Positions 45,974-61,880 of a stretch of DNA of 64,000 nt are shown here, in pieces. The stretch lies in the NCBI GenBank assembly GCA_964106915.2, contig OZ066919.1. One strand, 5' to 3'. Numbering within the stretch: the stretch's first letter is position 1; each line of letters starts with the position of its first letter. The notes under the pieces are model-generated. The model was not told the origin of the DNA. It worked only from the letters and a program-made list of their open reading frames with translations, and did no database searches. A program made the position numbers and the translations under genes. Source of the stretch: Podarcis gaigeae (lineage: Eukaryota).

Positions 45974-46162
45974 AGAACCAGATCCCATCTGGCTTTCCAA
46001 CCATAGACATGGGTCCACAGCTCAAAGTAGTAGAGAAGGCCCGCACTGCTACAATGCTCTGTGCTGCCAGCGGTAACCCTGACCCTGAAATATCCTGGTT
46101 CAAAGACTTTCTTCCTGTGGACACAGCCACTAGCAATGGCAGAATCAAACAGCTCCGTTCAG
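45974..46162 (+). CDS. PTPRF: PTPRF (LAR) coding exon, first half of Ig domain 2 (189 nt, phase 1-1)
   Basis: Acceptor ttgtgtttcag, donor gtaaaa. Translates (E)[62 protein letters not shown](G), the LAR-RPTP Ig2 sequence. VEKART, EISWF and ATSNG match PTPRF rather than PTPRD (VERTRT, EITWF, SNNNG). Confidence 0.95.
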
Positions 46163-48394: not shown

Positions 48395-49690
48395 CAAATA
48401 GTGTTGAAAGGAGTTGGATTTCTAGGCCCTATTGACGAATTAAAAAATGACAAGTCCCTGGGTCTGGGTGGCATCCACATGAGAGTTCTTAAATAATTCA
48501 AAATATCTCACTTCTCCCTAAGATTAGACTGCATATCTGAGAAATTGAAAGCGGCCAATGTAACACCAATTTTTAAACAGCGATTGGGGCGGGAGGAGAA
48601 ATCCAGGAAGTTAAAAGCCCAGTAGTTTGTTCTGGGAAAGCATTCTTAAAAAATAGAATTAGCAAGCATATTGAAGAGCAAGTATTGCTGAAGAACCACC
48701 ACCATAGCTTTTCCAAGAGTAAGTCCTGTCTCGGTGTCTCAATAACCTTTTAGCATGTAAATAGAGGTGATCCAGTAGACATTGTGTACTCCAGCTTTCA
48801 AAAAGCCTTTGACAGAGTACCAGACCAAAGACTCCCGAGTAAGCTCAGCAGGCATGGAATAAGAGCAAAGGTCTCTTATGGATCAGGAACTGTTTCAGAA
48901 ACAGGGAACAGAAAGTTAGAATGGAGATCCCTTTCAATGGAGGAATGTTGGAAGTAGAATTTCTCAAGGATTCGTGTTGGGGCCTTCTCCCTTTGACTTG
49001 CACAGAGTTAAGAGGGTGAGTTGTGAGGTGGCAAAGTTTGTTAATGATACCAAATCGTTCAGTGTGTTTAAAACAAAAAAAGGATCGTAAGGTGCTCCAG
49101 AAGGATCTCTCCAAATTGGGTGAGTGTGCATAAAATGGCAAATAGAATTCAATGTAAGGAAGTGTTAAGTGATGCACACTGAGGCAAAAAAAAATCGTGA
49201 ATTGGTGGTGACTCACTAGAAATGAGATTTTGGGGTCACAGCGGATAACTTGATGAAGCTGTTGACCCAGTGAGCAGCAACTGTGAAAAGTGCAGATTCC
49301 ATGCTAGGGATCATTAGGAAAGGAATTTAAAATAGAACTGCTGATATCATAATGCTGTTATACAAATCTATGGTGCAACTGCATTTGGAATACTGTGTAC
49401 ACTTGTGGTTGACTCTCCTCAAAAAGGATATTGTGGAGTTCAAAAAGGTTCAGAAAGGGAAAGCCAAAATGATCAAGAGGTTTCAGCAACTCCCCCGTGA
49501 GAAGTTTACAATACAAATTGAGTGACAGGGACATGGTAGAGGTGTGTAAGATTATTCATAGTGTGGAGAAATTGGATAGGGAGACATTCTTCTCCCACTT
49601 TCATAATAATTTGGGCCCATCCAATGAAGCTAAATGTTGGAAGATTCAGGACAGACATATAAAAGAAAGTACTTCTTCACACAGGTATAT
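48395..49690 (+). mobile_element. Degenerate CR1 LINE ORF2 (RT) fragment
   Basis: KS.G..GIH.RVL, ANVTPIFK, VDIVY..FQKAFDRVP, KF..DTK, LYKSMV..HLEYCV and 'aagtacttcttcacac' motifs with many frameshifts. The CR1 tail appears to resume at about 50145-50390. Confidence 0.88.
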
Positions 49691-52600: not shown

Positions 52601-54543
52601 AAGACAGAAGTTTATTGTGGAATTGCTGCTGAACCATGCATTTTTTTCTTGCAGTCTCCACATGAAGTTGTTGTCACCAAAATGCCAAGCAATATATGTA
52701 TATATTTTAAATTTAATTTCCATACCCCTTACTGCGAAAAATAGATAAATAAAAATAACTTGTTATAAACCTAAAGTCACTGCGGGAGTGGAAGCCAGTT
52801 AGTGCATTAGCACTTTTTTGTGTGGTGATGGTAGCAGTTTGTCACATGTGGTGACATTTCAGTGGGTGGCCCCTAATGCGACAGTCTGCACACAGTTACA
52901 GAAATACCTGCATACATGCACAGAGCAGAAGGCAATGGAGGGGGGTGGTGGAGTGTTGGACAGGAGGGACAACAAAACCATCTTCATATACACTCTGTTG
53001 AGGTCCTCTAATGTGGACAGCAACTGCAGAATAGCAATGATATCCACGACTGGGAGAGAGGTGGGGAACAGAAATATGTGGAAGCTAACATGCCAAATGT
53101 ACACACTGAAATATCTGATCTGAGCATTATGTTTGCAATATAAGCCCCATCCTGGAAGCACCCTAAGGCAGCACAATAATAAGTGTCATTAATTATTTAG
53201 GTTGGGCAGATGTCTTATAAGAACACTGGAAGCTGCATGCAGAGTCAGTCCATTGGTGCATCCAGCTGAATATAGTCTAAAATGACTATTAGTTGGTCTC
53301 CAGGTTTCAAGCAGGAGTCTGGAGATGCCAAGAATTGGATAAACCGGCAGCTTCTGCATTCTTGTTCATGCTGAAAACGTACTCCATTAGAATTAAAACT
53401 TAGGATGTTGTCCAAATTTTTATTTTGTAGCATATGACTTGCATCTTCATTTGGTGATCCTGACCACTATCATGGGAGTTCTGAATAATTTTTATTTTAT
53501 GTCTTTTATTGCCATATTCTCTAACATATATTAGTGCATACTAAACCTCCAAAGAGATCTTGTTTCATTGCTTCAGAGCCACTATACAGCTCTGGCAAGG
53601 GCTATCTTACACTAAGATCTGGAGACTGGGTTTTAATAACATACCAGCTAAACTTTAGGGAATCTATTTTGAGTGTGTGTTGGGATTCCATACAGAATTT
53701 TCAGTGACTAGGTGGATACAGAACAGCTCCAGATGATCTGTTTGGCAGCAACATAAAACAGAAGCTGCTTCAGTTAGCCAGGAATCATTTCTGGACTCTG
53801 TTGTAAGAGATGCTTCTTGTCTCTTAGAGTGGGGGAAGGGGATGTAGACTCTTTATTTACAGTGATAATTTGGAGATGGTTCGGGGGCAAGTAAGCACTC
53901 AGCAAATTTTTCTTTGGGGCATGAACCAATAACCCTCTTCTTCCTGTCAGTACAGCTTGTGAGCCATACAAGCTTCCGTGATGAGAATGGTTCTGTTAAG
54001 GGGGATGGAATGGTAGAAAAGCAGATAAATAGGCAGCAGATTTATTATGGTAGAGATTACCCGCAACTTCAGCAAACGGCATTAGCCTTCCTGATGCTTC
54101 ACTCATCTGTGGACAAAAGCATCAGCAAGTATAAACCAGCCATAAAGCGAAAATGGAGTAATGTCATCTCGGCTGTGGAGAATGCTAAACGAAGCAGCTG
54201 GAACTGCTTCCTCTGATTAAAAGCTAGGGCTACTGCCTGAAGGAACATACACTAGGAGAGTGGGAGGGAAAGCGATAACAAGTGTAAATATTTTAATTAC
54301 TCTTTAAGAGGCAAGTTAAACATGCTTAAAATCTGCCTTCTTTGTATTTACAGAAATCTTTGAGTGTCTTTCTTTGTTTCCCATTGGGTGATCAGTGCTG
54401 TGGATAATGGAATGTGGGGAGCGGTTAATCTCAGATACACAGCACTCATATGCTTACTGGTATTTATTGATCAATACACGGAACATGATTTGACGCTCTG
54501 TGTCCTGTTTAACCCTCTCTTTCTATCTGTTTAAACTCCCCAG

Positions 54544-54552
54544 TTTTCTTTG
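54544..54552 (+). CDS. PTPRF: Candidate 9-nt PTPRF microexon (V-F-F), positional equivalent of the 3-aa meA segment of PTPRD
   Basis: ctctctttctatctgtttaaactccccag|TTTTCTTTG|gtaagt: long pyrimidine tract, consensus donor, frame-preserving, ends in G (phase 1), about 1 kb upstream of the 18-nt meA. TGCATG at 54628-54633. Confidence 0.6.
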
Positions 54553-55565
54553 GTAAGTGCTTGGTGTTCAGATGTGCAAAATCTGCATCAAACCAACACA
54601 TACCATGAACTGCCTACAAATTAGATCTGCATGAATCTCCCTCACCTTACTAACAGCCTTCATTTGCACAAATTAAGACCAAGGGGACAAAACTGGGGAT
54701 CAGTTTCTGTCAGTTTACATACACGGGTCTCCCTCTGCACATCTGGACCATGCTAACAATAAAGCCCATGACTGAGCAAACGGCACTTTTGCTTGAAGTT
54801 TTGGAGCAGTTAACTTTGTAACCAAGCCTTCCTTATAAGATGCACTCATAGCATGTGAACTTATTTTCTGCTCCCTTATAAGGAGGGTTGGAATCCCTTT
54901 CCTCTGCCTACTGTATAAATTATGCAGAGCGAGTCTGGTGCTCCATTGGTCCAAATAAAAACTAGAAGAAAGTGCTTTAGATTTTTATTTGAAAAATCTG
55001 TTGTGTAGAATACCAATTTCTGGCCAGGGGGAACCTGGTGTAGGTTTTATTAAAGTTACCCCTGAATTCATCACTCAGTTTTTAAGTTTCAATTACATAA
55101 TCAGATTTTGTCCCCAACGGTCAATGTAATCTTAAACCAAGAATGTGTGTCTCACCAACACCATATGCTTAATTTTTCTCCCCACACACACTCTCTCACA
55201 ACACTCACTCTGGTACTCCCACAGCCCCACCTTCTGGCAGAATAAAAGGGCGCAGCACCCATATCCCAGTGGCTTCTCCATCTCAGTTGTGACAATGAAT
55301 GCTAGTGGTTTTGCTTAGGAGTCAGAGCCCTCCTTTGTGTAGGACCAGCAATATATTAATTGGGTAAAATGGGGCCAGACTCTGTGTTCTTGGTAGCAGA
55401 GAGCTTTACTAACCACCTGAGGGCATCACTCTGACTTGTTACTGCACATCCTTTATTTATTTATTTATTTTATTTATTTTTGTTTGTTCCTGTTGCGCTA
55501 ATACAGATTCTAGCTTTGAAAAACTTTCTACTTTTTTAGTTATAATTTTCTTCCTTTCCTCTTTG

Positions 55566-55613: not shown

Positions 55614-55631
55614 GTGGTACACCAATCAGAG
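55614..55631 (+). CDS. PTPRF: PTPRF alternative microexon meA (18 nt, GGTPIR)
   Basis: cag|GTGGTACACCAATCAGAG|gtaaga, phase 1-1, encoding G-G-T-P-I-R (known LAR-RPTP mini-exon A peptide: GGSPIR in human LAR, GGTPIR in PTPRD). Perfect TACTAAC branch point at 55566-55572, no AG from 55540 to 55611, TGC about 20 nt upstream of the acceptor. Confidence 0.93.
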
Positions 55632-56178
55632 GTAAGAATGCTGAACTGTGCCTCTAATTGTCATGTCACTCCATATCCTTTCTGCCATGCCCGTCTCCAA
55701 CAGTATATCATCTCCAGCTATTCTTTCACTCCAAACTCTTGTCAGCTCACTTGCGCATCTGCCGTTCCTTCCTGTGTGTGCTTGTTTTTGTTTATTTTTA
55801 GTGTGGCGCCTTGTAGAATCATCCATCGCAGGTGTGCACAGGTCAAAGGGGGTTATTCAACGGGAGGTTTTCAGAGGGAGAACGCTATCCCCATTCATGC
55901 CACAGAGGGTTCTGAGGTCTTGAATCTTTCAGATTCAGTCACCCTCTGGGGCACCACGTCCTGGCAGGTCTGAAATAGCTGCTGTGGCATGTTTTGAAGG
56001 ATGTAACACTTTCACAAGAGAACAGTGAAGCCCTTCCTTCTGCATTATTGCTGACAGGAATTGAACTAATACAAAGGAAATAAATTCTTAAAATGCCAGG
56101 CAAATCTAACTTGAGGAATAAGACTGGAGGACTTTCTCTGAGAGCTGAAGGTGACCTTTTCATAAATTTAATAAATAA

Positions 56179-56179
<1 letters not shown>

Positions 56180-56230
<51 letters not shown>
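56180..56230. repeat. (ATT)n microsatellite
   Basis: About 17 perfect ATT units. Confidence 0.97.
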
Positions 56231-59200
56231 TTGCTGGCCCTTCTCTGATATGAAGGTGAAGGGAGGAGATCTAAGATGCCAGCTCCACCCCTTCTGAAGC
56301 CTGACAAGAATTCATGGTGCACTGTAGCATAAAGATTTGTTGTGAGTAAATGAATCAGACACACATCTGGCTGCATTAAGTCTTCAGTTGTTCAATCCAC
56401 CTCCAGTCTGACAGCTCTGCATTCCCAGACCTTGCTAGTTTCACTGCCTATATGTGCTAGTAACATTTCTAGCCTATACACTCAAAGTAGTCCCTTGAAT
56501 TAATTTTAAGGTTGTAATCAGTACTATATAGTATGACTCTGATCTCTTGTGATTTCAGTTACTGCTGTTGACTGACCCCTGCATTTCCTGATAAACTTTT
56601 TAGCACCACTAAATTACACTATCTCATTTGTCCAATGCTCCCCTTCTTTCCTCCCCCTTCTCTCTCCACTGAATCACTGCTGGAAGTTAATAATCCAAGT
56701 CTTTGGAACTGATTCTGTTGCTGGGAGTTAATGTTTTCAGTTCTTGTTAAGTGATTTTGGAGCAAATGGGGGTTGCTGTTTCAAGTGTATTTGCATCAAG
56801 TTGCTTCTGTGAAAAATCTGGGTCAGGGGAAAAACTGTAAACCTCATTTTGATATGAATGGGTTTCTCTGTCATCTTCTCTTTGGAATGCTGCAAGATTG
56901 ACAGCTGTGATGCCACACATTTTTAAAACCTTTTCTCTGCTTCTATCACAACTCTGAAAGCAAAATGACAGACTGAATGCTAAGTAACCAAACAGGCCCT
57001 ATCGTTGCCCATATCAGGTTGGGCCTTTCCCAGCACACAACTGCTATGTATTTCCTCTGTATCAACAAGCGAGGGCATTAATGACTCAGCACCAGAACCG
57101 TCTGGATGTTCCGTACATCCTTTTTGAGGAAAGTGGACATATCTTTATAATGAGAATCATCCATCTCATAAAACATAAATCTCCCTATCTGAGTCCTAAT
57201 GAGGTATTTTAAGAATGTGTCTGACATTATTTAAAATGTATGTGTCCCGTTTGAATGTCAAAGATGACATTTCTGTACGTGCCAAAAAGCCACCTCTTAG
57301 CATCTCATACAGGATTTGTGTCAGACTTACACCTTTTGTTAAACACACAGGCTATTGAGTCTCTAAAGATTACCAGATGTGGTAGGTGAAAGGGAGGTTA
57401 TACTCACATAGTGGTCTGTACTGTGGTTCTCACTAAGGTAAGTTTGTTGCACTTCTGGGATCAATTTGATGTGGAAATAAAATTAAATTATTTTTTTGTT
57501 TGCACAGCTAGTTGGATGTAAAATTTTTGGTTCATGTTGAGAGGTGGATTCTATGTGAATGCATTGAAGGGCCAATCATACTTTCTGCCTATTGAATGGA
57601 AGTGTTATGGAAGTCAGGCCGGAGAAGCAGGATAAAATTTTATTTCTGAAACTAACCTTTCCTTTGGGCCCTGCAGCCGCAGTTCTACTCTTGCTGTCCA
57701 GAGGTGCTGTCATTTTTCTAACTGAGAGCTCTGTGTTCACAAGGCATGTTGTCACTTTTAACATTCCCCCTTTGCCTTTCAGGTGAGACCCAGGCTGAAA
57801 GGTCAGGGTGAGTTTTGATAGACTGTTCAGAGATGCATGGGTCTAGTTGGTGACTGGCAGGTTAGACAAGAGGATGGATGATTGGATGTGTATTTTGAAG
57901 GATGGCTAGTAAGCAAAAATAAAAGCTGCTTTAGGGGAAGTGACTTGACACATGTCCCCTTTCTCAAAGTTCAAATCAAGTTTTCTATGTTGTTATAGAA
58001 TGCAATTAAATATTATGAGAAATATTTCTCCTGGAAGCAGAAAATGCTGGCATGTCATGGACCTCTGATGCTTCAGATTTTGCCATTGCAGGCACATGAG
58101 AAGCAGTGGAAGTGTTAAAGGGAAGACAGCATTTTAAATGGTCCTTTTCTTCACAAAATAAATTGGAATCAATTGGAAAGCGTTCGTACCCGTTGACTGG
58201 ATAGACTTTCCTCCAGTGTGAGTTTCACCACTGCAAAGCAGAAGGACAATTACTTTGAAACAGAAAGATCTGATAATTGGCAGAGAAGGGCTGAGAAACT
58301 TTTTATCTAATACTTTTATTATTGCCCAAATTTCACGCTGTTTTGCCCTTAGCACCCTCTTTGGCAGTCTTGTAGTGCTGCTTCTCTTGGGATCTGCATA
58401 TATCAATCTCTCTTTTTCTGTATCTGGAGTACAAGAGGAAAGTGCATGAATGCCAGATGCATGATACACAAAAGGAAGGGGAATCAGTGATTGAGCTGTA
58501 TTCCTGCATTTGCCCTTGTGTGCCGCTCAGTTTCATAGCTCTCCGTCAGTGACTGCCTCACTTGTATATATCACAGAAACCCAGCTTCATTCCAGGTCCC
58601 AGCCATGCCAATCATCATGCTCAGGAAGAAGAGGCACAGCTGAACAGGAACATAATGAGCATCAGTAATAACATCACTGTGGTAGTTTTGTTTTTATTTA
58701 TTTAGCTTATTTGGCCGTAAAAAATAAATAAATTTGAGATGGGGGCATTTGGCTGCCATTCCAGGTAGCACCTAGGATTATTAGAGCTGAAAATCTAAGC
58801 GGCATGTTAAGTAGAGTATTGATATATAAATCATGATCCAGAAAATTTTGTGCACCATTTTACTCTACTGACAACTGCAGAGCTGCAAGAATCCAGTGTG
58901 AGATTGTGAAAGTAGACTTTTGCCTTCCTCGTCAAATCCTCAAATTTATATAAACATAAATTTAACTGAACACAAGTGAAGCTTCTGAGTAAACATTCAT
59001 AGGATTGCTCTGTTAATGAGACAGTCAACATTTTTCATTAACTTTGCTGGCAAAGCAAGGCAGATCCTGCCAAAACCAGAACACTTCTATGTTCCATAGA
59101 TTAGACCTACCTGCAGAAATGTAAGGTGAGAAGGTATCTGTGGATTTATTTATTTTAGCCATCTCTGCCCATGCTTATCAAGCCCACCAACCCCCACTAC

Positions 59201-61769: not shown

Positions 61770-61880
61770 GAGCTCTACAGATTGAGAACAGTGAAGAGTC
61801 AGACCAAGGCAAATATGAATGTGTCGCCACGAACAGTGCTGGGACCCGTTACTCTGCTCCAGCCAACCTTTATGTGCGAG
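61770..61880 (+). CDS. PTPRF: PTPRF coding exon, second half of Ig domain 2 (111 nt, phase 1-1)
   Basis: Acceptor tttccacatag, donor gtaaag. Translates (G)[36 protein letters not shown], in frame with 45974-46162. Not in the ORF track because it is short. Confidence 0.95.

Follow-up and report, generated by a model that had tools for sequence, protein, structure and literature searches.

A putative meA1 microexon in PTPRF of the lizard Podarcis gaigeae, corresponding to that of PTPRD and PTPRS

The window analysed here, a stretch of 64,000 nucleotides from Podarcis gaigeae (contig OZ066919.1), carries exons of PTPRF (LAR). The best protein matches, among those listed, bear the PTPRF name, the rest of the PTPRF exon set lies within the next 120 kb downstream, and a PTPRF exon of 193 residues is 100% identical to PTPRF of Podarcis raffonei and 99% identical to that of Lacerta agilis. 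Two paralogs of PTPRF, with 88% identity, are found on other contigs of the same genome (C30 and C31), and their exons read as PTPRD and PTPRS. PTPRD was assigned by identity to named PTPRD proteins, and PTPRS by residues characteristic of it. The identification of the gene as PTPRF, made in an earlier sequence-only reading of the window, therefore holds. The lacertid exons for Ig2 and most of those for the phosphatase region are 93-100% identical to tegu and gecko, and those for Ig3 and the fibronectin domains are mostly 77-94% identical.

The features of the intron that divides Ig2, and of its flanking exons, are collected in Table 1. Two further stretches of the same intron, 49006-49015 and 57783-57807, look like small exons and have good splice signals, but their lengths (10 and 25 nt) would shift the frame, and there is an (ATT)n microsatellite at about 56175-56230. 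Two open reading frame pieces, at 1702-1995 and 48845-49303 (minus strand), resemble fragments of a LINE reverse transcriptase. A 27-nt meC-type exon site of PTPRF (G000:C15:49943917-49943943) reads LRFKDAIDH; the 27-nt exon of mouse differs, and a skink model has a similar peptide. In five Hemicordylus PTPRF models the 18-nt exon is longer by 39 residues, and the likely cause is either a donor that is skipped or an additional exon.

Table 1. Positions of PTPRF exons and of the candidate microexon with its signals (window coordinates)
Feature	Position	Strand	Basis
PTPRF constitutive exon, first part of Ig2, ends QLRS + G (phase 1)	45974..46162	+	sequence; matches named PTPRF
AG-free zone, 99 nt, with pyrimidine tract	54443..54541	+	sequence
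AG acceptor of candidate microexon	54542..54543	+	sequence
Candidate meA1-type microexon site, would add V-F-F	54544..54552	+	sequence, sister-gene comparison
Donor GTAAGTGCTT (10/10 identical to PTPRD meA1 donor) and further flank aligning to PTPRD meA1	54553..54578	+	alignment
TGCATG, starts 76 nt past candidate exon end	54628..54633	+	sequence
18-nt meA2 microexon (GGTPIR), the known LAR meA, phase 1-1	55614..55631	+	sequence; GG-starting insert in 163/446 PTPRF proteins
PTPRF constitutive exon, second part of Ig2 (GALQIE...ANLYVR)	61770..61880	+	sequence

The candidate site reads cag/TTTTCTTTG/gtaagtgctt, where slashes mark the borders of the putative exon at 54544-54552. It is in phase 1-1, preserves the frame and is free of stop codons, and the predicted product is QLRS-VFF-(GGTPIR)-GALQ; the gap to the 18-nt meA exon downstream is 1061 nt. 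The pyrimidine fraction before the site is 0.76 over positions -25 to -5 and 0.79 over -40 to -3, and an AG-free zone as long as 99 nt is found at 3 of the 229 AG-N9-GT sites of the window, for which the median is 8. The sequence TTAAC at 54509-54513, at -35 from the exon, is branch-point-like. With an approximate matrix the donor scores 5.3, the same as the meA1 donors of PTPRD and PTPRS. The TGCATG downstream, an RBFOX-type motif, lends weak support, because there are 28 copies in the window and one would fall within 100 nt by chance with a probability of about 0.04. The 601 nt from 54300 to 54900 have a single match in the genome, in a search that skips simple repeats. The sequence-only reading had described an in-frame 9-nt site with a strong pyrimidine tract and a gtaagt donor, about 1 kb before the 18-nt meA exon, with TGCATG 76 nt downstream and in a region without obvious repeats, and all of this was confirmed, with the weight of the TGCATG motif as just given. 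A 13-mer at 54582-54594 has an exact copy 28-32 nt before the meB exons of PTPRD and PTPRS, once per fetched region, and may be a regulatory word in common or a chance recurrence.

The matching introns of PTPRD and PTPRS from the same genome were scanned for exons of 9 or 18 nt. Exactly two matches were obtained in each, ESI (9 nt) and then GGTPIR (18 nt) in PTPRD, and DTF (9 nt) and then EGTPIR (18 nt) in PTPRS on contig C31, for which the human peptides are ETF and ESTPIR. The PTPRF intron gave four matches, namely the candidate, the 18-nt exon and two 9-nt sites 3′ of the latter, one with a stop codon and the other with a weak donor. A strict splice filter applied to the intron missed the known 18-nt PTPRF exon, and such filters are therefore only a guide.

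The candidate and PTPRD meA1 have TTG/GTAAGTGCTT in common and are identical over 13 nt across the donor. The pattern AG-N6-TTGGTAAGTGCTT, which is AG-N6-TTG/GTAAGTGCTT, has 8 matches in the 1.51-Gb genome (1 for the reversed control), and two of the 8 are PTPRD meA1 and the candidate. With the other six taken as background, the expectation for the 9451-nt interval is 1.9e-5 matches; since the pattern was picked after the match had been seen, this value is optimistic. When AG, GTAAGT and the final G of the exon were kept fixed and the rest shuffled, 6 of 5000 shuffles reached the alignment score against PTPRD meA1; against PTPRS meA1 570 of 5000 did so, which is not significant. In comparisons with PTPRD meA1 the candidate ranked first among 228 AG-N9-GT sites, first of 58 AG-N9-GTRAG sites (51 versus 27) and first of 8174 tiles (51 versus 40). 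Scores to PTPRD for the flanks alone were 25 upstream and 27 downstream, compared with 20 and 25 for PTPRF meB, 58 and 28 for meA2, and 14 and 14 for the flanks of constitutive exons. Within the 9-nt exon the candidate is identical to PTPRD at 4/9 positions and to PTPRS at 5/9, and PTPRD is identical to PTPRS at 5/9.

The candidate thus has the Ig2 intron position, the 9-nt length in phase 1-1, the AG and GT borders and, with respect to PTPRD, similarity beyond the splice consensus. Given the pattern, shuffle, rank and flank-score results, it is almost certainly the PTPRF counterpart of meA1. Since PTPRD and PTPRS of the same genome have meA1 as well (ESI and DTF), the two-part meA layout, as judged from these alignments, is common to all three genes. 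The sequence-only reading, which had proposed a bipartite meA like that of PTPRD, was right about the counterpart of meA1 in position and sequence and too narrow in its comparison, as PTPRS also has this layout. The meA2 regions of PTPRF and PTPRD are 84.5% identical over 97 nt, and the meB regions of PTPRD and PTPRS are similarly close; microexon flanks are evidently under very strong constraint between the paralogs.

With PTPRD meA1/meA3 (ESI) the candidate shares the intron, the order before the 18-nt exon, the length, the phase, the junction at the donor and alignable flanks. It differs in its peptide, in the absence of a TGC near the acceptor and in its distance from the 18-nt exon, 1061 nt against 773 nt for PTPRD meA1. 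Like PTPRS meA1, it ends in TTTG/GTAAGTG after 9 nt, has F as third residue and has no TGC within 90 nt upstream, and it belongs with a peptide that is variable in PTPRS as well (ESF in mouse, DTF in this genome and, in the available text of a review, ETF in human; PMC6078854). Its flank similarity to PTPRS meA1 alone is not significant, its first residue is not acidic, and PTPRS meA1 is RNA-supported in mouse. The first residue is acidic in all other meA1 peptides seen and V in the candidate, so that VFF keeps the third position alone of the ESI-type pattern (acidic, S/T, hydrophobic). The LAR meA insert (A6) is GGSPIR in mammals and GGTPIR in other vertebrates; it is present here as the 18-nt exon, which the candidate precedes in frame.

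Searches and clusters for PTPRF yielded 466 proteins from fish, amphibians, turtles, birds, squamates, monotremes and mammals, sampled as the best 120 matches per search and up to 15 members of each cluster, which for the lacertid cluster means 15 of 96. The junction was readable in 446; 20 proteins that were partial or from other genes were dropped, as was a sturgeon model with a duplicated exon. The counts are of isoforms from a limited set of species and are not independent. Among the matches listed, 282 of the 446 junctions have no insert, 163 have an insert starting with GG, and one reads ETT-GGSPIR. A search of vertebrate PTPRF proteins for the VFF insert (QLRSVFFG), as the sequence-only reading had suggested, gave 0 of 446 readable junctions among the matches listed, including 0 of 15 from lacertids and 0 of 112 from squamates. 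The 18-nt exon is found in 8 of the 15 lacertid proteins listed from the 96 cluster members, and VFF in none. ESI is present in 36 of the 119 PTPRD proteins among the matches listed, and in corn snake it is found in 8 of 9 PTPRD proteins versus 0 of 5 PTPRF proteins. PTPRD meA1 is thus widely annotated and has been detected in mouse, and the PTPRF candidate is neither.

An intact 12-nt meB of PTPRF, reading DPRE instead of the usual DQRE, lies 4.8 kb past the end of the window (G000:C15:49916837-49916848) and is identical to that of PTPRD at 10 of 12 nucleotides. It was located by alignment to the PTPRD flanks, which rules out loss of meB from lizard PTPRF. Yet meB is found in 0 of 113 squamate and 0 of 15 lacertid PTPRF proteins listed (the squamate ids were picked out manually). 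Intact small exons of squamate PTPRF thus escape annotation, and for squamates the failure to find VFF is weak evidence. In the whole set of PTPRF proteins listed, meB is present in 25 of 444, so that meA1 of PTPRF is annotated less often than meB.

A search by coordinate prefix and transcript id of the MicroExonator table for mouse in supplementary file 2 of PMC7821500 gave no 9-nt exon in the matching Ptprf intron. The table contains four Ptprf microexons, of 12, 27, 12 and 18 nt, and its coverage values are 524 for Ptprf meA2, 269 for Ptprf meB, 562 for Ptprd meA1 and 48 for Ptprs meA1. The available text of a targeted RNA-seq study of mouse brain (PMC10883964) describes a single new Ptprf exon, close to the membrane, and handles Ptprf meA as one unit; it reports hardly any expression of Ptprs meA in bulk brain, with meA1-containing forms in some projection neurons. 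For rodent LAR, the six-residue insert alone is given in the accessible portions of a report of rat cDNA cloning (PMC4578660) and of a review (PMC6078854), in agreement with the sequence-only reading on this point; compared with LAR as presented in such reviews and cloning papers, the candidate would add the three-residue half. The accessible part of a zebrafish table, which covers only chosen exons with mouse matches, gives 18-nt exons for ptprfa and ptprfb (PMC12626420). A PTPRF meA1 or VFF insert is not mentioned in the literature searched, which consisted mostly of non-subscription texts, so earlier annotation in some species is possible.

One PTPRF protein does have a 9-residue meA. The Condylura cristata model XP_012577674.1, a predicted protein that is 97% identical to another mole PTPRF and 73% identical to PTPRD, contains the three residues ETT, not VFF, before GGSPIR (1 of 446). 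ETT may come from a live meA1 resembling the ETF of PTPRS, or from the use of another acceptor that lies 9 nt before the 18-nt exon, which is possible because a Thr codon followed by G can end in CAG.

Taking these results together, we lean towards reading the site as a PTPRF counterpart of meA1 with intact splice signals, probably included only rarely, which would serve as a three-residue spacer that turns LAR A6 into A9. A sequence scan found no TGC closer than -93 upstream of the candidate acceptor. The nearest upstream TGC is at -35 for PTPRD meA1 and at -22 for meA2 of both PTPRF and PTPRD, and PTPRS meA1 of this genome also has none within 100 nt. The candidate exon itself is pyrimidine at 8 of 9 positions, with two CU-type motifs. 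A UGC upstream of the acceptor is an enhancer for SRRM3/4, and a CU-rich exon and tract would favour PTBP-type repression. With a CU-rich exon and an acceptor that has no UGC close by, inclusion may well be low or confined to few neurons; low inclusion is what has been reported for Ptprs meA, and its restriction to particular projection neurons would be a plausible model for the use of PTPRF meA1. SRRM3/4-dependent neural microexons typically have a UGC near the acceptor, a long AG-free pyrimidine region and a consensus donor. The last two are seen here, the nearest TGC is at -93, and we did not class the candidate as an SRRM3/4 target.

The effect on the protein would probably be exerted through the length of the loop and not through the side chains of V-F-F. 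In PTPdelta, according to the available text of a structural study (PMC4423211), meA9 is a loop between two strands that bind Ig1 of IL1RAPL1, and Glu188, the first meA residue, contacts IL1RAPL1 through its main-chain N. Table 2 of that paper gives Kd values for IL1RAPL1 of 0.15 uM for A9/B+, 0.81 uM for A6/B+ and 0.80 uM for A9/B-, and binding of A6/B- and A3 was undetectable. According to the same text, the contact residues are largely the same in the family members, and it is meA and meB on which specificity for IL1RAPL1 rests. L153, L185, S187, R196 and A198, which are PTPdelta contacts, are identical in a lacertid PTPRF in an alignment read by eye. As the meA1 peptides in use differ (ESI, ETF, ESF) and the contact is made by the main chain, length is likelier to matter than side chains, and A9 LAR would then bind IL1RAPL1 better than A6, as is the case for PTPdelta. 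A length effect would also explain why the meA1 peptide has drifted (ESI, ETF, ESF, DTF, VFF) while the length and the splice sites stay. The proposal of the sequence-only reading that a hydrophobic VFF loop changes the adhesion code finds no support here, given this variation and the main-chain contact of the first residue (PMC4423211, available text). The accessible portion of a review places E181 among extensive contacts with IL1RAPL1 (PMC6078854), however, and loss of the acidic residue, replaced by V in VFF, could still cost affinity.

Three other readings were weighed. The 15.6-kb intron contains 1760 AG-N(3-30)-GT pairs, two other 9-nt sites in it pass a relaxed filter, and much of the match to PTPRD consists of splice consensus and pyrimidine tract, all of which would be expected if the site were a chance splice-like sequence unrelated to meA1. 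We regard this as very improbable, since the pattern occurs 8 times genome-wide with two occurrences at sister-gene positions, only 6 of 5000 consensus-fixed shuffles score as well, and the candidate is in the right order relative to the 18-nt exon, whereas of the other 9-nt sites, both located 3′ of that exon, one contains a stop and the other has a weak donor. At the opposite extreme, a major and regularly used lizard microexon, with abundant A3 and A9 forms and a new hydrophobic binding surface, would fit the donor score of 5.3, equal to those of PTPRD and PTPRS meA1 on the approximate matrix, the long AG-free zone with TGCATG downstream, and the diverged sequence of the lacertid PTPRF ectodomain and meB (DPRE). 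It is unlikely, as VFF is missing from all 15 lacertid proteins listed, of 96 in the cluster, while 8 of them have the 18-nt exon. In addition, the first meA residue has a main-chain role and A3 alone binds IL1RAPL1 undetectably (PMC4423211, available text).

The site could instead be a silent remnant of meA1 that is never spliced into mRNA, either decaying since a recent loss of function or kept only because it affects the 18-nt exon, as a decoy or regulatory splice site. This we consider possible, though less probable than rare inclusion. It would account for the failure to find VFF in any of the 446 PTPRF proteins listed and for the absence of the exon from a mouse table that picks up low-level Ptprs meA1, and it fits the CU-type motifs in an exon that has lost the acidic residue and the lack of TGC within 90 nt upstream, compared with -22 and -35 in the exons named above. 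However, PTPRS meA1 of this genome also lacks a TGC within 100 nt, and its mouse ortholog is spliced. The AG, the 9-nt spacing, the open frame, the 13-nt identity to PTPRD across the donor and the 99-nt AG-free zone are moreover all intact. PTPRF, PTPRD and PTPRS split early in vertebrate history. Fifteen unconstrained positions would stay unchanged with a probability of only 0.05 at 0.2 substitutions per site and 0.0006 at 0.5, and with so early a split this low survival indicates that constraint lasted until recently and that any loss is recent. In the reading favoured here, selection would have kept the splice signals of the candidate in the lizard lineage, and the two-part meA would be older than the duplications that made the three genes. 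A 22-nt stretch spanning the site was also searched for in metagenomes and gave 3 matches, none with flank similarity, which we attribute to chance.

In the LAR-family 'splice code' as described, LAR is without the three-residue half of meA, and the different IL1RAPL1 specificity of the family members is attributed to meA and meB alone in the available text of PMC4423211. The PTPRF meA1 site is a modest addition to this well-known system. An intact meA1 site in lizard PTPRF suggests that the two-part cassette is ancestral to the three genes and that the short insert of LAR is likely to reflect loss or silencing. A wider and doubtful extension is that the two-part meA was inherited by all three LAR-type phosphatases and that lizards, perhaps with other non-rodent vertebrates, still make LAR A9 plus meB. 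If this is true, A9 LAR would be a working IL1RAPL1 receptor in lizards, and the PTPdelta monopoly on IL1RAPL1 would be a later state that arose from the silencing of one 9-nt exon in Ptprf. If it is spliced, the VFF exon of PTPRF would provide a natural test of whether meA1 acts by length or by sequence.
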